From a virus: a stretch of DNA of 19,819 nucleotides. Shown here piece by piece: positions 4,011 to 19,819 of the stretch. The notes under the pieces were generated by a model. That model did not search any database, was not told where the DNA came from, and worked only from the letters and a program-made list of their open reading frames with translations. The translations under genes were made by a program, and so were the position numbers. Each line of letters opens with the position of its first letter. Position 1 is the first letter of the stretch. The stretch is from UHGV virus genome UHGV-0254309; one strand, given 5' to 3'.

Positions 4011-4215
4011 TCATTTTCACTTTCTTAAATCTAACGACAGACGGCTAACATTTAAGTATTGTGAAATATTATCAAATGTAATCATCATTGATTTACAAAA
4101 GATACATTTTGCCCCGAAAGGATTCCTGTCAGAAACATCAAAAGATGATGTTCTATACTGAGAACCATGGCAACACGGGCATCTAAAGTGAATATGGTTT
4201 GTAATATTTTCTACC

Positions 4216-4431
4216 TCAAAGTGCCACAACATGAACAGCCGCGGGGCCTTTAGGTCCGTTCTCAATACCAAATTCGACTTCCTGATTCTCAGTTAACGTT
4301 TTGAAATCGTTGCTCTGAATAGCTGAGAAATGGACAAACACATCTTTGCTACCATCTTTCGGCGTGATGAAACCAAAACCTTTTTCAGGGTTAAACCATT
4401 TCACTAAACCAGTCATTTTGTTAGACATCAT
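4216..4431 (-). CDS. cspI: Cold-shock protein, CspA family (CspI-like)
   Basis: 70-71 aa, [38 protein letters not shown]..., with RNP1/RNP2 motifs of the cold-shock domain. Two tandem ATGs at the start. Confidence 0.85.
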
Positions 4432-4791
4432 TATTACCTTTTGAAGAAGTTAGCCCTTGGGCAGAATGGTCCGAAAAAAAATATCAGAGAGAAAAACCAA
4501 CAAGGAAATCTCAAGAGGTACAAATAATAAAATTATAACAATGACTGCTTCAGATAATTTTGTAACAAACCAGAACACCATTAACGCATGATTAACCAAC
4601 CATAGCAAGGATTACTTTTGTAAAGAAAAACACACGAATGAAACAATAGCTTTATTTATTAATAAAACGTGTCATTCTGTCTAATGACCTTTTATCTTAC
4701 CCTTAAGATTTCAAGGATTTTGACTCATGGAAGAGTCCTTTTTATTTAAATTTCACATTCAGCGCTAAAAATAATCCGATTTAATATTAAT

Positions 4792-7385: not shown

Positions 7386-7664
7386 TATTGTGGTGCTTTT
7401 TGTGGGAGTCATCCACTTACGCACTTTGTTTTGCTATGCCAGCAGTTAGCTTCTGCTGTAAAACTATTCATGCAGCAAACCTGCACTTCACCACAATGGT
7501 TAGCATACTTTTCCTGATTAAGTTATTGCCAAATATGCTGGCCATTGTTTCATGTATTGGACCTCCTTACTATTTATTAAAGAGATCCAATATTCACCAC
7601 TCTGTCTGTATCTCCACTCAGGCATCAGCCTTCTTCGTTATCGTATACAGACAAACTATGAATT

Positions 7665-7880
7665 TTAATCAGTAATTATGACATTTGCTGCTGCAGGACC
7701 TTTAGCACCACTCTCTACAGAGAAGGTAACCTTTTGACCTTCAAATAAGGTTCGAAAATTATCATTCTGAATCGCAGAAAAATGCACAAACACATCTTTA
7801 CTACCATCAACAGGAGAAATAAAGCCAAAACCTTTATCAGCGTTAAACCATTTTACTAAACCAGTCATTTTATTTGACAT
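7665..7880 (-). CDS. cspB: Cold-shock protein, CspA family (CspB-like)
   Basis: 71 aa, [45 protein letters not shown]..., full cold-shock domain; long upstream leader typical of cold-shock genes. Confidence 0.85.
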
Positions 7881-8180
7881 TCTACATTCCTTAACTTGAG
7901 CCTTTCGGCATAAATGGCTTGTATAACAGAAACGACTTCGTACTTAATTGGAGAGACTCAAAGAAGGAATAAGTGAATAACACCTGAAATGAGAACTGCT
8001 TTAGTAAACTACTTCGTATATCGTCTGTTCTTCAAACCGACGCAATCATTAACGCATAGTTGAACATATGAAGCAATGTTTATTTTAGACATCCAGCCAT
8101 CTTCAACCCCATCAAAAAACTATAGCTTTCTTCAGGAAGGTGTGTATAGTGCGCCCAGTTATCAGTATTAAGGAATTTTT

Positions 8181-13248: not shown

Positions 13249-14055
13249 TCACCCCCTGAATCCTGCCGGGATCTGGCTGTAGTCCACGTTGTCGTAACTG
13301 GCTTTGAAGTACGGGTCCTCACGTCTGGCTGCAGATACCGCAGGAACTTCCCAGGATTCTTCGAAATGACGATCCGGGCCAAAGAACGTGACAGCCTGTT
13401 TCACAAATTGTGTGCCGCTGTTACCCATCGCAGATACCCAGCCCGCGTAGCGTTTCACACCTTCCAGCATGGTTTCGGGGTTTACCCCCTCATTCAAACG
13501 GGCTTTCCAGGCTTTGAAGGCTGCAGATTTTGAATTGCCACCAGCACGTTTGGGATATACCAGCCATGCCTGCTCAAACTCCGGAGAGTATTCCGGTCGG
13601 TTTGAACGAACTCGCACGGACTCATCAACTGATGCACCAACAGCTATTGGTTCATTGACTGGTTCAAAAGAGTGACTGGTTCTGGGTGAATCTCCTGCAC
13701 TACCCCCTGGTGCAACTCCTGCACTACCTGGTGAATTTGCTGCACCAGATAGTGAATTATTTGCACTACCCCCTAGTGAATCTCCTGCACCATCAAGATG
13801 AAGGAGATAGATATTACTTGAGTTACCTTTTTCACCTTTCCGGGTGACTTTTTTTACCAGCCCGGACTCACAAAGGGCCGCAATATGATTCATCACAGAA
13901 CGTTTGCTAATCTCGCACTGGTCAGCAATATGCTGGTAGCTGGGCCAGCACTCACCCTGATCGCTGGCATTATCAGCCAGCTTGATCAGAACCAGTTTTC
14001 GCAATGGATTACCCACTCGAATTTTCATCGCTTTAACCATCAGCTCCATACTCAT
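13249..14055 (-). CDS. Replication initiator, lambda-O-like architecture (N-terminal wHTH, repeat-encoded linker, C-terminal domain)
   Basis: 268 aa; N-terminal winged HTH (LRKLVLIKLADNASDQGECWPSYQHIADQCEISKRSVMNHIAALCESGLV), low-complexity linker encoded by direct DNA repeats, distinct C-terminal domain. ATG overlaps upstream stop. Confidence 0.7.
   Translation of the reverse strand: MSMELMVKAMKIRVGNPLRKLVLIKLADNASDQGECWPSYQHIADQCEISKRSVMNHIAALCESGLVKKVTRKGEKGNSSNIYLLHLDGAGDSLGGSANNSLSGAANSPGSAGVAPGGSAGDSPRTSHSFEPVNEPIAVGASVDESVRVRSNRPEYSPEFEQAWLVYPKRAGGNSKSAAFKAWKARLNEGVNPETMLEGVKRYAGWVSAMGNSGTQFVKQAVTFFGPDRHFEESWEVPAVSAARREDPYFKASYDNVDYSQIPAGFRG
13685..13798. repeat. Iteron-like direct repeats inside the initiator gene (candidate phage replication origin)
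   Basis: About five 21-24 bp repeats with core (G/A)GTGAAT..CTGCAC (e.g. GGTGAATCTCCTGCACTACCCCCT, AGTGAATCTCCTGCACCATCAAG), flanked at 13800-13860 by an AT-rich stretch. Confidence 0.6.
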
Positions 14056-14276
14056 GCTGCACCTCCGAGATGCTTCATGTTTTTTCCGGAGCGAAAGGCT
14101 ATAAGCGGCATACTGACGCGGTAATTACGGCCCAGCGGTTCACAAATCACCTTCTGACATTCACGGTCAACCAGGCTAACACGTAGAACATGCCCTGCAG
14201 GTGTGGTATACCACTGACCCGGACGAGGACAACGGAAAGTCTGATTGGTAAACCGTTTGAAAATATTCCGGATCAT
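14052..14276 (-). CDS. Hypothetical small protein (74 aa)
   Basis: Tightly packed between the Rha-domain ORF and the initiator gene, with start/stop overlaps on both sides. No recognisable domain. Confidence 0.45.
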   Translation of the reverse strand: MIRNIFKRFTNQTFRCPRPGQWYTTPAGHVLRVSLVDRECQKVICEPLGRNYRVSMPLIAFRSGKNMKHLGGAA

Positions 14277-15421
14277 TTGCGCCCCCTTACCTCTGAAGGG
14301 TTCAGCGACAAATTTATGAGGCAGGCCAGCGCCGAAGCATCATTAATATAGTCATACAAGCTAACAGCCAGCGGAGATTCGGCTTTTGCCAACATAGGAT
14401 AAAGCTGCTGCAGCCAGACCTGATGAATTGATGAAATGTAGGAATAGAGAACGCTGGCGTTATGTGCAACGTCGCTCGGTACAGGGGGTTTTGAAAGCTG
14501 TTTCTCCATCTGGTTAAAGGCATTGATATATGCCTCTTTGAACTGGGCAGCACGTTTACCCGTGAAACCCATAGCAAGAAACGCAAAGCCGTCGCGGGTT
14601 ATTTGATAGCAAGGTAGTTTGCGGCCTGATGCGTCGATGTACTCACTGAGCTGAAAATTCAGCTCAGTAAATTCGGCAGAGCATTCAAGAGACGCAATTT
14701 TTTGAATGACATTTTTGTGTTGTTTGCCGAAATAACTAGCAACAGCCAGAGAAGAAGTAACAACTTTGTCTGCAATAATGCAAAGTTCAGGTTGTACTAA
14801 GGCAGGGATCGTAGCCATGATGGCAGCCTCCGTATGCAATGGATAACTTCCACCACCGGAAACGCCAATTTCGCTGGTGGTGAACTGAGCAGGGTTGGCG
14901 TAACCGGCGCATACGGAAACCGGCGCACCTTTCGGTGCCCCCACCCAGCCCACCATAATTTGGGTATAGCTGAGTTGTAGCAACAAAAAAGACGCTAACG
15001 CGCCAATTGTCGCCGTATGCAATTCCAGGACGCCAATCCCGGCACCCGCTTTATAAGGTGCCTGAACAGTGTAACGTCCCGGAATGGCAGAATCAATGTG
15101 CTGGTGGTCCTTCACACTCAACAAAATCACGCCTGAATTTCCACAAAGGACTAAAGCACTCATGCGGGTAGTCTTTGCGAAGATAGATAACGCGCTGTGT
15201 TTCTGGTTCCCAACGAATAACATGAACATAAAGCCCTCTTCCGTCACGAAACCAGCGGTTAAGTTCCTGCACAACTCGCCCCCCACAGTCAGGTAAAGTT
15301 CTCTGTGGTTACTTACAGCCAGGTGATTTGGTAATCTGCATTCATGCCGTAACAACAGGTGTTCAGAGACGCTGACCACCAGCTGTTGCGACAAACGGTT
15401 ATTTGCCGTTAAACTGTTCAT
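14273..15421 (-). CDS. Rha-family phage regulatory protein with a roughly 200 aa N-terminal extension of unknown function
   Basis: Residues about 215-300 (VTSSLAVASYFGKQHKNVIQKI...YQITRDGFAFLAMGFTGKRAAQFKEAYINAF) match the Rha domain. Long ORF starts at an ATG overlapping the upstream stop; an internal ATG at about 14818 with GGAGG upstream would give a 181 aa Rha-only product. Confidence 0.6.
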   Translation of the reverse strand: MNSLTANNRLSQQLVVSVSEHLLLRHECRLPNHLAVSNHRELYLTVGGELCRNLTAGFVTEEGFMFMLFVGNQKHSALSIFAKTTRMSALVLCGNSGVILLSVKDHQHIDSAIPGRYTVQAPYKAGAGIGVLELHTATIGALASFLLLQLSYTQIMVGWVGAPKGAPVSVCAGYANPAQFTTSEIGVSGGGSYPLHTEAAIMATIPALVQPELCIIADKVVTSSLAVASYFGKQHKNVIQKIASLECSAEFTELNFQLSEYIDASGRKLPCYQITRDGFAFLAMGFTGKRAAQFKEAYINAFNQMEKQLSKPPVPSDVAHNASVLYSYISSIHQVWLQQLYPMLAKAESPLAVSLYDYINDASALACLINLSLNPSEVRGRK

Positions 15422-15969
15422 GCGTTAGTTTCTCCACAGACACAAAACGCCACGACGCCCGGAGCTGCACACTCGCGGGCGTCACTCTTTTCTGGAGCGC
15501 AAAAGATTTTGTAGACCAGTGCTGCATGCTCCTGGAGCTTCGAAATTGACAGATACAACTCATCATTAATTGCTGTCTGCTCGTGTGGCTCCACTACCCC
15601 ATCTTCGATTGCCGAACGAATCTGTTTTGAGTAACTCCCGATCTGTTCGATGACTTCCAGCAGGCGCTGGTTTATATCGGCGTTCTCAACTTCCTCAATG
15701 TCAGGAAGCGATACAAACACCCCACCTGCAGACTGTGCGACAGCATCCGCAATGTAGTGAGTGCCAGCCGCGCGCTGTAAAATCATTGCCCATCCCAGCG
15801 GGAAAATCTGATCGCCATCTGCACGAAGGCGGTTGAATAAAGCGTTCTCTGTTACATCCAGCCACTCAGCAGCTTCAGCGTAACCCCCCGGCAACGCCGC
15901 GATAGTTTTTCTGACAGCTTTCACGTACCACTCAGGCTGTTTTTCCACTTTCCAGTGATGCTTACCCAC
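15418..15969 (-). CDS. Early regulatory protein in the cII position (function uncertain)
   Basis: 183 aa; GTG start preceded by a perfect AGGAGGT Shine-Dalgarno and overlapping the cro-like stop. Assigned by position only; no confident family match. Confidence 0.45.
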   Translation of the reverse strand: MGKHHWKVEKQPEWYVKAVRKTIAALPGGYAEAAEWLDVTENALFNRLRADGDQIFPLGWAMILQRAAGTHYIADAVAQSAGGVFVSLPDIEEVENADINQRLLEVIEQIGSYSKQIRSAIEDGVVEPHEQTAINDELYLSISKLQEHAALVYKIFCAPEKSDARECAAPGVVAFCVCGETNA

Positions 15970-16222
15970 GGCTTACCTCCTGTTCCTGTGGTTTAAACCC
16001 ATTCTGGTTTTGGCTAGATTGAAAACGTGCCGGATAAAGAATCTGCATTTCGCTGATTTCACCCTTAAAAAAATTGGCCAGACGCTCTGCAAGATCGATA
16101 GATGGAATTTGTTCCAGTCTCTCAATACGACTCAGCGTTGCTGGATTAACCTGAACGCCCGCAGCAACATGCTGCAAAGTAAACCCGTGCGCCTTACGCA
16201 CATTTCGTAATGGTGATTGCAT
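15962..16222 (-). CDS. Cro-like HTH (XRE family) regulator
   Basis: 86 aa with helix-turn-helix (HGFTLQHVAAGVQVNPATLSRIE). Divergent from the CI-like repressor across an operator-rich region; GGAGG Shine-Dalgarno. Confidence 0.75.
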   Translation of the reverse strand: MQSPLRNVRKAHGFTLQHVAAGVQVNPATLSRIERLEQIPSIDLAERLANFFKGEISEMQILYPARFQSSQNQNGFKPQEQEVSRG

Positions 16223-16319
16223 ATAACCTCCACATATTGCGTGATGAGCATATTATTTCACGCAAATATTTTGCGCAAGTTGATTTGCTTAACGCGCAAT
16301 AAAGAAATGTAATAAACGC
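16223..16319. promoter_or_regulatory. Immunity-region operator/promoter block (OR) with divergent PR-like and PRM-like promoters
   Basis: Operator-like sites: TTGCGTGA-N13-TCACGCAA (about 16237-16265), palindrome TTGCGCAA (16271-16278), TTGCTTAACGCGCAA (16285-16299). Minus strand: TTGCGC, 17 bp, TAATAT (PR-like). Plus strand: TTGCTT, 17 bp, TGTAAT ending about 6 nt before the cI ATG, with no Shine-Dalgarno. Confidence 0.6.
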
Positions 16320-17012
16320 ATGAACATAGGAAACCGAGTCAGACAACTTCGCCAGGCGAAGAACATGAAAATCGCCGATCTCGCTGAAGCAATAGGAGTG
16401 GATGCGGCGAATATCTCGCGCCTGGAAACAGGTAAGCAGAAACAATTCACTGAACAAGCCCTGAGTAATATTGCCAGGAGCTTAGGTGTTGATATTGCTG
16501 ATCTCTTTACCTCAGACGTCAAAAGTAATACTGTATGTAAAAACAGTATTAGTGAGGATGTTGCGCAGGTGAAGGATGTATTCCGTATTGAAATGCTGGA
16601 TGTCAGTGCCAGTGCGGGAAATGGCCTTATCCAGGGCGGTGATGTCATTGATGTGATTCATGCCATTGAATACAGAACTGATAATGCTGTATCGATGTTT
16701 GGCGGACGACCAGCCAATCACATTAAAGTTATCAACGTTCGTGGGGACAGTATGTGTCCAACCATTGAGCCAGGAGATCTCATCTTCGTTGATGTCAGTA
16801 TCAATCAGTTTGATGGAGATGGTATCTATGTATTTGGTTTTGATGATAAAATTTATGTCAAACGACTGCAAATGATACCTGACAAACTACTGGTGATATC
16901 TGATAACCAGATTTACCGTGAATGGGGAATTACCAGCGAAAATGAACACCGGTTTATGGTCTTTGGAAAGGTCTTAATCAGCCAGTCACAAACCCTTAAA
17001 CGACACAATTAA
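16320..17012 (+). CDS. CI-like prophage repressor (HTH plus S24 LexA-type autopeptidase domain)
   Basis: 230 aa; N-terminal XRE HTH (RVRQLRQAKNMKIADLAEAIGVDAANISRLETGK), Ala-Gly cleavage-site candidate (SASAGNG), catalytic Ser in GDSMCPT and Lys in VKRLQ. Confidence 0.85.
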   Translation: MNIGNRVRQLRQAKNMKIADLAEAIGVDAANISRLETGKQKQFTEQALSNIARSLGVDIADLFTSDVKSNTVCKNSISEDVAQVKDVFRIEMLDVSASAGNGLIQGGDVIDVIHAIEYRTDNAVSMFGGRPANHIKVINVRGDSMCPTIEPGDLIFVDVSINQFDGDGIYVFGFDDKIYVKRLQMIPDKLLVISDNQIYREWGITSENEHRFMVFGKVLISQSQTLKRHN

Positions 17013-17032
17013 CCCTTACTTCCTCATCAATT

Positions 17033-17056
17033 AGCCACCCGAAGGTGGCTTTTCAT
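17033..17056 (+). terminator. Rho-independent terminator downstream of cI
   Basis: Stem AGCCACC / GGTGGCT with CGAA loop followed by TTTTCATT, about 20 nt after the cI stop. Confidence 0.6.
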
Positions 17057-17067
17057 TACCCATCAAA

Positions 17068-17106
17068 TTGCATATCTCGCAATAAAAACACTTGCATAAT
17101 GCGCAA
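17068..17106 (+). promoter_or_regulatory. OL-like operator pair, presumed PL region
   Basis: Two 15-bp sites TTGCATATCTCGCAA and TTGCATAATGCGCAA share the TTGC-N7-GCAA pattern seen in OR. Promoter hexamers could not be placed with consensus spacing. Confidence 0.5.
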
Positions 17107-17531
17107 CTTCATTTTATCTTTCTTTCCAGACCAACAAACAAGGTACTAACAAAATTTGGTTGTAACACGGCGTATGGCACATGCGTCGTTAGCGGTCTGG
17201 GGACGTTAAAGGGGACAATCCACTCCTTGCTCGGGCAAACAAACCAGGTAGCCGGAATGTGCAAGTCAATGATGATGCTGATAAGACGCCTAACCAGCGC
17301 GGCGATCCGGTTTGACGCCTGGGAAGAGACCAGGGTGCAACGATGAGGGCATTTATGGAACCGCGACAAAGTGTGGTGCCGTAACTGGCTAAGTGCTCTC
17401 AGCGTTGTGGTAATCCGCGAAATGGCGCGGCGGTAAGTATGGCGGGGTTACTCTTTCCCCGTTGAGGACACCGGATTGTCAGGTTGACCATACGCCTGAG
17501 TGACAACCCCACCACAACAGCCACTGCTTTG

Positions 17532-17583
17532 GCGGTACCAGTTTGTACACTTGCTTCCGGCTGGTACCGCTCTTTTTACAAAA
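17532..17583 (+). terminator. Hairpin plus T-run in the PL leader, overlapping a boxA-like motif
   Basis: Perfect 10-bp inverted repeat GCGGTACCAG...CTGGTACCGC (19-nt loop) followed by TCTTTTTACAAAA; the CGCTCTTTTTACAAAA stretch resembles boxA. Confidence 0.4.
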
Positions 17584-17714
17584 CAGAGAAGAGCATCACC
17601 GGACGACGGGCTCATAACCCAATCCATCCGGGCGGCTGCCACCGCAGGTGTTCTTCTCTGTTTTGTGGAGAAACCAACCGGCCTTGCAGGGTCGATATGA
17701 TGAGGAGCAGCAAA

Positions 17715-18077
17715 ATGGCTAGCGAACGCAGTACTGATGTGCAGGCATTTATCGGGGAGCTGGACGGCGGCGTATTTGAAACCAAAATCGGCGCAGTTCT
17801 CAGTGAAGTCGCTTCCGGTGTGATGAACACGAAAACCAAAGGTAAGGTCTCGCTCAACCTGGAAATCGAACCGTTTGATGAGAACCGTGTGAAAATCAAG
17901 CACAAACTCTCATATGTTCGCCCGACTAACCGCGGGAAAATTTCCGAAGAAGACACCACCGAAACGCCGATGTATGTCAATCGCGGTGGTCGCCTGACTA
18001 TTCTGCAGGAAGACCAGGGACAATTACTGACTCTTGCCGGTGAACCTGACGGAAAACTCCGCGCAGCAGGTCATTAA
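17715..18077 (+). CDS. yfdP: YfdP-like prophage protein
   Basis: 120 aa from the ATG at 17715, which has GAGGAG 7 nt upstream (MASERSTDVQAFIGELDGGVFETKIG...). The longer listed frame includes the leader hairpin and is probably not translated. Confidence 0.7.
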   Translation: MASERSTDVQAFIGELDGGVFETKIGAVLSEVASGVMNTKTKGKVSLNLEIEPFDENRVKIKHKLSYVRPTNRGKISEEDTTETPMYVNRGGRLTILQEDQGQLLTLAGEPDGKLRAAGH

Positions 18078-18142
18078 TATCGTTCTTAATTAACTGATTA
18101 TTTATCTCATCACTGAATATCTTTATATAGTGAGGACTTATT

Positions 18143-18967
18143 ATGTCTCAGAACTTAGACGCAACCGCAATTAATCAAATCCATGCCCTTATTTCTGCTC
18201 AGGGTGTTAATGAAATTATCAGTAAGATTGGTGCCGATGCTGTGGCATTGCCTGAGAATTTCCGCATTCATGATCTGGAAAAATTTAATTTAAATCGCTT
18301 CCGTTTCCGTGGTGCGCTTTCCACTGCCAGCATCGATGACTTTACCCGTTATTCTAAAGATCTTGCAGATGAAGGCACCCGCTGCTTTATCGATGCTGAT
18401 AATATGCGTGCCGTCAGTGTACTTAACCTGGGTACTATTGATGAACCAGGTCACGCAGATAACACCGCCACTCTCAAACTGAAAAAGACAGCACCGTTCT
18501 CTGCCCTGTTGTCTGTTAACGGCGAGCGTAACTCCCAGAAGTCACTGGCAGAATGGATTGAAGACTGGGCCGACTACCTTGTGGGCTTTGATGCTAATGG
18601 TGACGCTATTCAGGCAACAAAAGCGGCTGCGGCAGTCCGTAAAATCACGATTGAAGCAAACCAGACCGCTGATTTTGAAGATAATGACTTCAGCGGCAAA
18701 CGCTCCCTGATGGAGTCTGTCGAAGCGAAGACCAAAGACATTATGCCAGTGGCATTTGAATTTAAATGCGTTCCGTTTGAAGGCCTTAAAGAACGTCCGT
18801 TTAAATTACGCCTCAACATTATCACTGGCGATCGTCCTGTACTGGTTCTGCGCATTATTCAGCTGGAAGCAGTGCAGGAAGAAATGGCTAACGAATTTCG
18901 TGATCTGCTTGTTGAGAAATTTAAAGACAGCAAAGTAGAAACCTTTATTGGTACTTTCACCGCCTGA
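18143..18967 (+). CDS. yfdQ: YfdQ-like protein (DUF2303)
   Basis: 274 aa ORF with GAGGA Shine-Dalgarno, [30 protein letters not shown]..., recognised as the YfdQ family. Confidence 0.8.
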
Positions 18968-19094
18968 TTTCATTACTGCAAATGCCCCTGCGGGGGCATT
19001 TATGGAAACATAATTTACTCAATAATCGCCGGATGGTGATGGCTTCCTTTTACCAGAATTCAGCGCGGTACAGCGCATATACGTGGAGAACAAT

Positions 19095-19631
19095 ATGTCA
19101 TTTATTAAAACTTTTTCCGGGAAGCATTTTTATTATGACAGGATAAATAAAGACGACATCGTTATTAACGATATCGCGGTTTCCCTTTCAAATATCTGTC
19201 GCTTTGCAGGACATCTTTCACACTTCTACAGCGTCGCCCAACATGCGGTGCTTTGCAGCCAGCTGGTACCGCAGGAATTTGCTTTTGAAGCGTTAATGCA
19301 TGATGCAACAGAAGCATATTGCCAGGACATCCCCGCACCACTGAAACGCCTTCTTCCTGACTATAAACGGATGGAAGAAAAAATAGGCGTCGTCATCCGT
19401 GAGAAATACGGATTACCCCCGGTTATGAGCACGCCCGTGAAATATGCCGATCTCATCATGCTGGCAACCGAACGCCGCGATCTCGGGCTTGATGATGGCT
19501 CTTTCTGGCCTGTACTGGAAGGTATCCCGGCGACAGAGATGTTCAAAGTTATTCCACTGTCACCAGGCCATGCCTACGGGATGTTTATGGAACGTTTTAA
19601 CGAGTTATCGGAGTTACGCAAATGCGCATGA
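19095..19631 (+). CDS. yfdR: YfdR-like HD-domain protein (5'-deoxynucleotidase family)
   Basis: 178 aa from the ATG at 19095 (GGAGAA 4 nt upstream); HD-type metal-binding residues (...SVAQHAVL...LMHDATEAY...). Listed ORF begins at an upstream GTG. Confidence 0.8.
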   Translation: MSFIKTFSGKHFYYDRINKDDIVINDIAVSLSNICRFAGHLSHFYSVAQHAVLCSQLVPQEFAFEALMHDATEAYCQDIPAPLKRLLPDYKRMEEKIGVVIREKYGLPPVMSTPVKYADLIMLATERRDLGLDDGSFWPVLEGIPATEMFKVIPLSPGHAYGMFMERFNELSELRKCA

Positions 19632-19819
19632 ATGTTTTCGAAATGGAAGGGTTTCTTCGCGGGAAATGTGTACCGCGAGATCTGAAAGTGAACGAAACAA
19701 ATGCTGAGTACCTGGTACGTAAATTCGATGCGCTTGAAGCTAAATGTGCGGCACTGGAAAACAAAATAATACCAGTGTCAGCTGAACTACCACCAGCAAA
19801 TGAAAGTGTTCTGTTATTT
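19622..19819 (+). CDS. yfdS: YfdS-like protein, 5' part only (runs off the window)
   Basis: Starts MRMNVFEMEGFLRGKCVPRDLKVNETNAEYLVRKFDALEAKCAALENKII..., overlapping the yfdR stop; open to the window end. Confidence 0.65.
   Translation, partial: MRMNVFEMEGFLRGKCVPRDLKVNETNAEYLVRKFDALEAKCAALENKIIPVSAELPPANESVLLF

Follow-up and report, generated by a model that had tools for sequence, protein, structure and literature searches.

The genes at positions 17715-19819 of the window (the whole stretch of DNA that was analysed, 19,819 nt in length) are, by sequence comparison, orthologues of yfdP, yfdQ, yfdR and yfdS of the CPS-53 (KplE1) element of Escherichia coli K-12, and they occupy the early-left operon of a lambdoid prophage of the mEp460/S88 type. 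The gene identities, the early-left position and the hypothesis of replication inhibition have already been published, and the finding is an ordinary one, since near-identical K-12 genes are found here in a position described for many lambda-like phages. The sole unexpected feature is an unannotated, conserved structured RNA that lies between the repressor gene and yfdP (Table 1).

Table 1. Coordinates of the features described in the text, in window positions.
Feature	Position	Strand	Description
CII-like gene (ymfL)	15418-15969	-	ORF list and family searches
cro-like HTH gene	15962-16222	-	Pfam HTH_3, E 6e-10; Cro by PhiR40_1 annotation; first early-right gene
OR-like operator region	16237-16299	.	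Between cro and cI; repeat family D1/D4, inverted repeat I1, pattern search
cI-type repressor gene	16320-17012	+	230 aa; HTH and S24 autopeptidase
Intrinsic terminator-like hairpin	17033-17055	+	Ends cI transcript; terminator scan; dG -11.8 kcal/mol, z -4.6
OL-like operators	17068-17106	.	Exact TTGC-N7-GCAA at 17068-17082 and 17092-17106, 24 bp apart
Inferred PL-like promoter	17092-17120	+	-35 TTGCAT (17092-17097), 17-nt spacer, -10 TATCTT (17115-17120); operator overlaps
Conserved structured RNA candidate	17167-17412	+	~245 nt, 8 helices, 49 pairs, variable insert; nhmmer match
Terminator-like hairpin	17531-17577	+	13-bp stem GCGGUACCAGUUU.../...GGCUGGUACCGC, then UCUUUUU; inverted repeat I14
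Long, nearly perfect hairpin	17574-17670	+	Just upstream of yfdP; inverted repeat I2; dG -49.7 kcal/mol, z -6.9
yfdP	17715-18077	+	120 aa; Shine-Dalgarno GAGGAG 7 nt upstream; PHROG 204
yfdQ	18143-18967	+	274 aa; DUF2303
GC-rich hairpin	18981-19000	+	AAUGCCCC-UGCG-GGGGCAUU; yfdQ-yfdR gap; weakly terminator-like; fold of 18968-19094
yfdR	19095-19631	+	178 aa; alternative GTG start 19083; HD-domain protein
yfdS	19622-19819	+	First 66 of 120 codons, cut by window end; PHROG 583

Alignment to CPS-53 of K-12 MG1655, which the sequence-only reading had proposed as a check, upheld its assignment of these open reading frames to yfdPQRS, with 97.2% DNA identity from position 17696 to the end of the window. 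YfdP is identical to its K-12 counterpart (b2359) at 119 of 120 residues (99.2%), YfdQ at 271 of 274 (98.9%) and YfdR, which is equal in genomic position and six substitutions apart, at 172 of 178 (96.6%); residues 1-66 of YfdS match at 66 of 66 (100%). The K-12 gene order (yfdP-yfdT), the spacing and the overlap of the yfdS start with the yfdR stop (10 nt here) are the same, with protein identities of 97-100%. In E. coli SF4-1 the stretch is 100% identical and carries the RefSeq annotation yfdP, yfdQ, yfdR and yfdS; yfdS is complete both there and in S88. The YfdP family corresponds to PF27127, as precomputed on the database homologues of YfdP, and YfdQ matched Pfam PF10065 (DUF2303) over residues 7-272 (E 4e-92; 308.6 bits against a cut-off of 26.6). 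YfdQ also matched a relative of solved structure, PDB entry 9o7m (‘YfdQ Protein’, 36 chains, E 3e-44), for which a literature search found no paper mentioning the entry, and searches with YfdP and YfdQ of fold libraries that did not include 9o7m yielded no functional hint. The full-length YfdS homologue of S88 scored 21.0 bits against a DUF551 cut-off of 22, the window itself holding residues 1-66 only. PADLOC returned no matches for YfdP, YfdQ, YfdR, YfdS or DUF551, and no NCBIfam model matched the proteins of the cluster, YfdR included.

The segment 15900-19819, comprising cro, cI, the leader and yfdP-yfdS, was recovered at 97-98% identity over 94-100% of its length from the sequenced phages mEp460, PhiR40_1/PhiR47_1/PhiR55_1, phiSTEC1575-Stx2k and Stx2a_1447/WGPS2, in which the gene order is by annotation the same. 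Among 5426 complete E. coli genomes, 885 contained this block, immunity region included, at approximately 98% identity, and closely related prophage copies were integrated beside yjjG. Whereas the window represents a prophage copy, mEp460 and the others are sequenced phages. The native regulatory context in which the sequence-only reading would study the module is no novelty, as the arrangement already exists in mEp460, PhiR40_1 and the Stx2 phages. Cultivable phages with the same arrangement are available for experiments.

The genes are the first to code for proteins downstream of cI on its strand, in an operon that, in the window and the complete relatives S88 and SF4-1 taken together, ends at int. 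In the two complete copies the operon proceeds from yfdS through a DUF551 gene and a variable cargo gene to int, with neither N nor a recombination module, and PMC12315714 describes phages of this same type. The early-left placement given in the sequence-only reading, where lambda has N and its recombination genes, is correct. The cargo beyond yfdS differs between relatives, being ea22, an exonuclease and xis in mEp460, but a DUF551 gene with either a hypothetical gene or a dCTP deaminase in the chromosomal copies. In related records the replication module is annotated with an O-like protein, and yfdN comes immediately after it; neither a helicase nor a loader is annotated.

The cI/cro/cII immunity region looks intact. 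The repressor matched Pfam Peptidase_S24 (E 6e-19) and HTH_3 (E 1e-10) as well as PHROG 4 (CI-like repressor), and its translation shows the Ala-Gly and GDSM...K motifs. The yfd module had been described as attached to this region; the region itself stands, but the two do not directly adjoin, since the interval from the cI stop to yfdP (17013-17714) spans approximately 700 bp that is non-coding and highly structured and bears terminator-like hairpins. No N-type antiterminator gene or nut site was recognised in this interval: RefSeq has no gene there in SF4-1 or S88, and the only open reading frames that the phage records annotate in it are minus-strand hypotheticals.

A pattern search of the 19.8-kb window placed three of its four exact TTGC-N7-GCAA sites in the two regions that flank cI. 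The OR-like region holds an exact site at 16285-16299 and another with one mismatch at 16237-16251, whilst the other two of the three exact sites form the OL-like pair, the second of which overlaps a putative PL-like promoter. This promoter was read from the sequence and is weak, with 3/6 and 4/6 matches to the consensus hexamers; it falls under the threshold of the consensus promoter scan, which called no promoter-like site in 17013-17714. At two related loci (L015 and L045) a homologous operator is followed by the same TATCTT hexamer, and the L015 repressor is a close relative. The operator-like sites make repressor control of yfdP-yfdS plausible. That the yfd genes are driven from the repressor-controlled promoter is only inferred, because approximately 700 bp of structured, terminator-like DNA intervenes; from the promoter to yfdP, a transcript would span approximately 590 untranslated bases with terminator-like hairpins.

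The hairpin at 17531-17577 has a predicted folding energy of -21.2 kcal/mol (z -4.1), with a loop that exceeds the limit of the consensus terminator scan. BLAST searches found the block 17530-17714 at 96-99% identity in SfV, SfIV and mEp460_4F5, and the block 17572-17682 at 84-90% identity in ST64B and LLS. Thus SfV, whose orf29-32 encode YfdQRST homologues, and mEp460_4F5 have the yfdP-proximal block of the leader in common with the window, which in mEp460_4F5 is the only part so shared, and LLS and ST64B have only the long-hairpin part. LLS and ST64B carry homologues of the yfdP/Q/R type within their early left operons, and SfV has such homologues as well. K-12 differs in having lost cI, cro, cII and the whole leader, such that yfdO lies directly upstream of yfdP; homology to K-12 begins just 19 bp before the ATG of yfdP, and the K-12 genes are therefore without an adjacent immunity region.

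Retention of the genes by K-12 without any immunity region, together with the terminator-like hairpin upstream of yfdP, would fit a cluster that the prophage expresses from a promoter of its own, with the leader terminator shielding it from PL, and that serves host stress tolerance and not lytic growth. Deletion of yfdQ or yfdS in K-12 has been associated with greater sensitivity to H2O2 or MMS (Wang 2010 and Rooney 2009, as cited in PMC4776307), although the K-12 phenotypes are weak. We consider such a benefit to the lysogen quite unlikely, given that the promoter scan of the interval was negative, that the approximately 140 bp between the hairpin and yfdP is nearly filled by the long hairpin, and that position and orientation are those of the early-left operon of many inducible phages.

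The structured RNA was supported by a sequence alignment (A3) folded with RNAalifold, in which 96.6% of cells were paired, compared with 30-42% in slid controls. Covariation was strong, with 17 pairs showing compensatory change against 2-5 in the slid controls. A protein-coding leader was considered and rejected, as no reading frame was kept across 17 homologues and the substitutions within helices were compensatory. The RNA had no match in Rfam 15 at gathering scores, a search of 16900-18200 against Rfam 15 with E values up to 5 returned nothing beyond two chance matches, and neither a tRNA nor a tmRNA was found. Its invariant sequence gave only one chance 12-mer match in the literature, in an unrelated paper.

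This RNA, which is unannotated, is present in one third of the complete E. coli genomes; a profile search showed that the K-12 locus has none, and the window holds a single copy. Copies of it also lie immediately after several unrelated repressor genes; those of other immunity types start within approximately 10 nt of a -10 hexamer, and the one described here approximately 40 nt past the inferred start of PL. In P1/P7 and epsilon15-like phages, further matches adjoin tRNA genes. In P1/P7 the 5' domain occurs without the 3' domain, beside rare-codon tRNA genes, which would suggest a broader part in RNA processing or in the early transcription of phages.

In the window the RNA takes the place expected for N/nutL or putL, and a put-like antiterminator role may be entertained as speculation. 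In its fullest form, the RNA would be an undescribed class that marks early-left 5' ends in N-less lambdoid prophages, acts in cis like HK022 put, takes RNA polymerase through the hairpins at 17531-17577 and 18981-19000, and is thereby the real gate for yfdPQRS. This proposal, drawn by analogy, we regard as improbable; should the RNA indeed control early transcription, it would represent a second way in which RNA achieves antitermination independently of N.

YfdR matched PHROG 318 (E 3e-108), annotated as ‘deoxyribonucleoside 5' monophosphate phosphatase’, its gene is named 5'-deoxynucleotidase by RefSeq, and it aligned with the HD protein Atu1052 (PDB 2gz4; E 3e-12). The segment ‘LMHDATEAYCQDIP’ aligns with ‘MYHDASEVLTGDLP’ of YfbR, conserving the H...HD...E...D metal-binding/catalytic motif. 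The motif bears out the proposal of an HD protein of the 5'-deoxynucleotidase type, but the YfbR-like Pfam score (PF12917) was 22.3 bits, below its gathering cut-off of 25.9, and that for HD_3 was 16.3 against 22.5. The conserved motif and these database names would suit a module in which YfdR acts mainly as a 5'-deoxynucleotidase, reshaping dNMP/dNTP pools for replication or against nucleotide-targeting defences, with DnaA binding incidental; a few genes further downstream, the related prophage of SF4-1 encodes an anti-phage dCTP deaminase, which suggests nucleotide metabolism as a common thread of the locus. We nevertheless find a nucleotide-pool function unlikely. Besides the Pfam score and the lack of an NCBIfam match, identity to YfbR is 33% over 40 residues only, YfdR has far weaker affinity for nucleotides than YfbR has (Zimmerman 2008, as cited in PMC4776307), and the need for YfdQ and for YfdS or YfdT would be left unexplained.

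That need arises from the K-12 proteins, whose literature was given correctly in the sequence-only reading. K-12 YfdR binds DnaA domain I via Phe46, the site of DiaA and DnaB, and competes with both for DnaA (Noguchi and Katayama 2016, PMC4776307). When present in multicopy, yfdQRS or yfdQRT inhibits initiation at oriC, and inhibition in vivo requires yfdQ together with yfdS or yfdT, whilst deletion of yfdQRST gave no replication phenotype, YfdP was not included in the suppressor set, and an overexpression artefact could not be excluded by the authors themselves (PMC4776307). The YfdR described here is, on sequence grounds, an orthologue of this DnaA-binding HD protein; DnaA binding itself is known for the K-12 protein and would extend to the present one by analogy.

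The account that we favour, albeit tentatively and with its chances put slightly short of even, joins these yfd orthologues and a repressor-controlled PL to the throttling of host initiation. In the lysogen, the cI-type repressor would occupy the two OL-like operators and silence the weak PL-like promoter. Upon SOS-triggered autocleavage of the repressor, transcription would pass through the approximately 590-nt leader, with its structured RNA, terminator-like hairpin and long hairpin, and then reach yfdP-yfdQ-yfdR-yfdS. As judged from the 97-99% identical K-12 proteins, YfdR would bind DnaA domain I at Phe46 and, with YfdQ and YfdS (or YfdT), lower initiation at oriC, such that host initiation would be throttled during lytic growth. 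The weak phosphohydrolase activity of YfdR on dNMPs may play a secondary part. As these phages have an O-like initiator and no annotated helicase or helicase-loader gene, DnaB might be freed for the phage origin, which is speculation. YfdR targets the DnaA patch that recruits DnaB, and in a phage type with no annotated loader this may hint at the means of helicase acquisition, a matter explicitly listed as not understood for such phages (PMC12315714).

The co-oriented genes, the good Shine-Dalgarno sequence of yfdP, the S24 repressor and the operator-like sites beside cI support this account. Against it count the weakness of the promoter, the lack of a replication phenotype on deletion of yfdQRST, the strong terminator-like hairpin of the leader and the weaker one in the yfdQ-yfdR gap, both between promoter and yfdR, and the derivation of all functional data from multicopy expression in K-12.

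Among known systems, there is a likeness with the ‘no Rec module’ phages LLS and ST64B, which carry homologues of yfdP, yfdQ and the HD phosphatase in the early-left operon, with no N or Rec genes and with an O-like gene alone as replication module (Genome Res 2025, PMC12315714). LLS differs in repressor specificity, its CI being closest (89%) to that of mEp460_4F5. The location of the cluster in the Rec-module place of a phage type devoid of such a module could be taken to mean that it is a cryptic recombination or DNA-transaction module in place of lambda exo/bet/gam. This is highly improbable, and is largely refuted by PMC12315714, where the cluster is concluded to be unlikely to encode recombination proteins; the cluster is also carried by phages, ArgO145 among them, whose four-function Rec module is complete (PMC12315714), and models of YfdQ and YfdP are unlike annealases, exonucleases or Gam-like folds.

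The leader RNA resembles HK022 put in its position within an N-less lambdoid phage, putL likewise lying just downstream of PL. However, put is approximately 70 nt in length, forms two stem-loops and is present in both early operons, whereas the leader RNA is over three times as long, with eight helices and a single copy, and a putL/putR-like pair is consequently not seen. The PL/PR region of HK022 (24000-33000) gave no match to the leader-RNA profile, and the RNA was rejected as a put antiterminator RNA on size, stem-loops, copy number and sequence.

As mobile-element or developmental proteins that bind DnaA and thereby block oriC initiation, lambda P and Bacillus subtilis SirA are functional analogues of YfdR (PMC4776307). 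YfdR is an HD-domain protein with no sequence relationship to either, and lambda P differs further in that it binds domain III and is itself a helicase loader. SirA and YfdR, by contrast, both depend on the Phe46/Phe49 patch of DnaA domain I (PMC4776307).

The sequence-only reading had placed yfdP-yfdQ-yfdR-yfdS homologues in the early-left position of this lambdoid prophage, and both gene identities and positions were borne out by alignment to the annotated CPS-53 region of K-12 MG1655, the reference for the residue identities tabulated below. DNA identity to CPS-53 was 97.2% from window position 17696 onward, and RefSeq uses the names yfdP, yfdQ, yfdR and yfdS for the genes of the stretch that E. 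coli O111:H8 SF4-1 has at 100% identity.

Features of the repressor-yfdPQRS segment of the window, and positions of the leader RNA module in other loci
Feature	Position	Strand	Remarks
cI-type repressor	16320-17012	+	230 aa, HTH + Peptidase_S24; same strand, upstream of yfdPQRS
Terminator-like hairpin after cI	17033-17050 + U run		terminator scan, fold
OL-like sites, exact TTGC-N7-GCAA	17068-17082, 17092-17106		two, right after cI hairpin
Weak PL-like promoter pair TTGCAT-17-TATCTT	17092-17120		overlaps second operator-like site; read from sequence
Leader RNA candidate	17167-17412	+	about 245 nt, 8 helices, strong covariation; start of early-left leader
13-bp hairpin then UCUUUUU	17531-17577	+	dG -21 kcal/mol, z -4.1
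97-nt nearly perfect hairpin	17574-17670	+	dG -49.7 kcal/mol, z -6.9; immediately upstream of yfdP ribosome-binding site
yfdP ORF	17715-18077	+	119/120 residues identical to K-12 YfdP
yfdQ ORF	18143-18967	+	271/274 residues identical to K-12 YfdQ
yfdR ORF	19095-19631	+	172/178 residues identical to K-12 YfdR
yfdS ORF	19622-19819	+	first 66 residues, 66/66 identical to K-12 YfdS; truncated by window end
Leader RNA module, L005 (P1)	621-709, 815-943, 1118-1204, 2514-2689
Leader RNA module, L007 (P7)	96-224, 1514-1687
Leader RNA module, further loci (L006, L008, L025, L100)

YfdQ matched DUF2303 over its full length (E 4e-92), and a recent Pfam family, PF27127, is assigned to YfdP homologues; the functions of both proteins are not known (PMC12315714). 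No module protein had a match in PADLOC or NCBIfam, and structural neighbours of the AlphaFold models of YfdQ (pLDDT 76) and YfdP (pLDDT 69) were uninformative. The PDB entry 9o7m, ‘YfdQ Protein’ (E 3e-44 to the window YfdQ), contains 36 identical chains of 274 residues and hence suggests a large homo-oligomeric assembly; a literature search found no paper on this entry. In YfdR, assigned to the 5'-deoxynucleotidase-type HD proteins, the HD..E..D motif is retained, and matches were obtained to PHROG 318 ‘deoxyribonucleoside 5' monophosphate phosphatase’ (E 3e-108) and the HD protein Atu1052 (PDB 2gz4, E 3e-12), but the score against Pfam YfbR-like (22.3) fell under the gathering score of 25.9 and no NCBIfam model matched. 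A rival reading, in which the module supplies a nucleotide-pool enzyme, is to be set beside these matches and beside the nucleotide affinities of YfdR, which are far below YfbR's (PMC4776307).

The literature background given for YfdR and for replication inhibition by the yfdQRST cluster proved accurate. Noguchi and Katayama obtained yfdQRST in a multicopy suppressor screen of hda-185, and reported that oriC initiation was inhibited by yfdQRS or yfdQRT in several backgrounds, as was initiation in vitro by extracts containing YfdQRST (PMC4776307). Deletion gave no replication phenotype and an overexpression artefact was considered possible by the authors, who also noted that the homologous orf29-31 of SfV may have served phage growth (PMC4776307). 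Since that study reports both the YfdQRST effect and a possible role in phage growth, the host-replication hypothesis for the module is already in print. In the best-supported account, the module genes would be early-left genes, derepressed once the S24 repressor is cleaved in the SOS response; YfdR would bind DnaA domain I at its Phe46 patch and, with YfdQ and YfdS/T, lower initiation at oriC. Blocking of the DnaA-DnaB contact could in addition, we infer, steer DnaB towards the phage origin; this phage type has an O-like initiator and neither a helicase nor a loader is annotated in it.

The replication module (13249-14055 on the minus strand, and neighbours) seemingly consists of one O-like HTH protein, with yfdN (PerC-like) coming directly after it, and no helicase or helicase loader is annotated in that module. 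It matches the ‘O only’ class of lambdoid phages, whose replication ‘is not yet understood’ (PMC12315714). Rfam C4 antisense RNA (14873-14960, minus strand, 80.7 bits) and isrK (14985-15061, minus strand, 61.2 bits) fall in the 5' third of a 382-codon ORF (14273-15421) annotated as ‘Rha family phage regulatory protein’; given these internal matches, the N-terminal part of this ORF is probably a non-coding leader, resembling P1 immI or Gifsy IsrK, that controls a Rha/antirepressor gene. Going by how the related S88 prophage is annotated, two Rfam cspA thermoregulator matches (4170-4586 and 7602-8041, minus strand, 110 and 157 bits) represent cold-shock genes of the cspI/cspB type that the prophage carries in its lysis/late region.

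The arrangement of the module beside an immunity region is already known. Positions 15900-19819 were 97-98% identical over 94-100% of their length in mEp460, PhiR40_1/47_1/55_1, phiSTEC1575-Stx2k and the Stx2a phages 1447/WGPS2, and at least 80% of 15500-19819 was present in 885 of 5426 complete E. coli genomes. Homology to K-12 starts just 19 bp ahead of the yfdP ATG, so the immunity region has been lost in K-12. Related complete prophages in S88, APEC O1 and SF4-1, integrated beside yjjG, have after yfdS a DUF551 gene, then a cargo gene that varies and lastly int, with neither an N gene nor recombination genes. The cargo, downstream of the window, differs between these relatives: an anti-phage dCTP deaminase in SF4-1 (L001 23840-25435; PADLOC dCTPase, E 3e-164) and an unrelated 331-aa hypothetical protein without a family match in S88 (L009 27407-28402). 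That the module is instead a cryptic recombination module is essentially excluded by the published occurrence of YfdP/YfdQ-type clusters alongside a complete Rec module in some phages (PMC12315714).

A cro-like gene and the CII-like gene ymfL diverge from the cI-type repressor. Besides the two OL-like sites, TTGC-N7-GCAA had just two exact matches in the 19.8-kb window, one between cro and cI (16285-16299) and one at 1995, the latter presumably by chance, and a one-mismatch copy lies at 16237; this placement is the pattern expected of early-left (OL) and cro-cI (OR) operators. A consensus promoter scan from the cI stop to yfdP returned no promoter-like sites, the PL-like pair falling under threshold, a result that also counts against the rival proposal of lysogen stress-tolerance genes with their own promoter. 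Two other loci, L015 and L045, have a homologous operator with the TATCTT hexamer likewise coming after it, and the repressor of L015 is closely similar to that of the window. From the operator-like sites, promoter-like pair and counterpart loci, repressor control of the leftward operon is inferred to be likely. Overall, the observation was confirmed and its interpretation partly supported.

Some 590 untranslated bases separate the putative transcript start (about 17127) from the yfdP ATG, and this leader, a mosaic of conserved non-coding blocks, folds far better than shuffles (z -4.8). The long hairpin occupies almost all of the final 140 bp ahead of yfdP and is absent from K-12; the block around it (17530-17714) was 96-99% identical in SfV, SfIV and mEp460_4F5, and 17572-17682 was 84-90% identical in ST64B and LLS. 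Another GC-rich hairpin lies between yfdQ and yfdR. A further non-coding block (17404-17526, plus strand) shares about 90% identity with phages Evi, PPompW and Tritos, with a fold z of -1.0 (not significant); ACCACAAC at its 3' end (17511-17518) is able to pair with the leader RNA's terminal GUUGUGGU, as an alternative to the closing helices of the latter.

Only the leader RNA candidate, which is unannotated, merits follow-up in its own right. Retrieval by its invariant 19-mer, GGTAGCCGGAATGTGCAAG, yielded no fewer than 120 viral contigs, representing 41 clusters at 95% identity, and 24 species-representative genomes from many Enterobacterales genera; the block occurred in 1832 of 5426 complete E. 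coli genomes, annotated as its own feature in none. For an alignment of 17 diverse copies, the RNAalifold consensus comprised 8 helices and 49 pairs, with standard pairs in 96.6% of cells, as against 30-42% when 3' partners were slid by 1-3 columns, and compensatory double changes at 17 pairs against 2-5 in slid controls; none of 500 shuffles attained the observed values. Invariant G-U pairs set the orientation to the plus strand. A protein-coding role was ruled out, no reading frame being conserved. Searches of the element against Rfam (E up to 5) and for tRNAs gave no match, and a literature search for the invariant sequence gave no meaningful one.

In lambdoid contigs the leader RNA has the same orientation as repressor genes of at least five sequence types (four HTH + S24, two short HTH-only) and lies 90-250 nt downstream of them; what comes after it varies (a ParB-like gene, an excisionase, unknown genes or yfdP). 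Loci L036 and L116 have a TTGACA-18-TACATT promoter whose end is 6 nt ahead of the first hairpin, and other groups have a -10-like hexamer 3-13 nt upstream, so that, judging by these motifs, the RNA appears to begin at +1 of the early-left transcript or close to it; the window copy begins about 40 nt downstream of the predicted start. The element is modular, with 100 full-length matches, 28 with the 5' 155-nt domain only and 23 with the 3' domain only. In P1 and P7 the 5' domain alone lies between ban and a tRNA gene (annotated tRNA-Ile in P7; tRNA-Met (CAU) according to ARAGORN), and 3'-domain-only copies lie close to other tRNA genes. The complete element of epsilon15-like phages adjoins a tRNA-Arg(UCU) gene, and the four bases with which that gene begins (GUGG) overlap the terminal GUUGUGG of the element.

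A put-like cis-antiterminator is attractive because, in phages that lack N, PL transcripts begin with the RNA and terminator-like hairpins lie downstream of it, yet we consider this role unlikely; the P1 and epsilon15 contexts, where the element sits beside tRNA genes, fit at least as well with a stable RNA that is processed and connected with the expression of phage tRNAs. A put-type RNA was suggested speculatively for LLS, none being identified (PMC12315714). No copy was found in K-12 CPS-53 or in the region of HK022 searched (24000-33000), HK022 being the paradigm of RNA-mediated N-independent antitermination, and the window holds a single copy. Membership of the put family was ruled out on these grounds and on size and structure, as put RNAs have two stem-loops in about 70 nt, whereas the window element spans about 245 nt and forms 8 helices.
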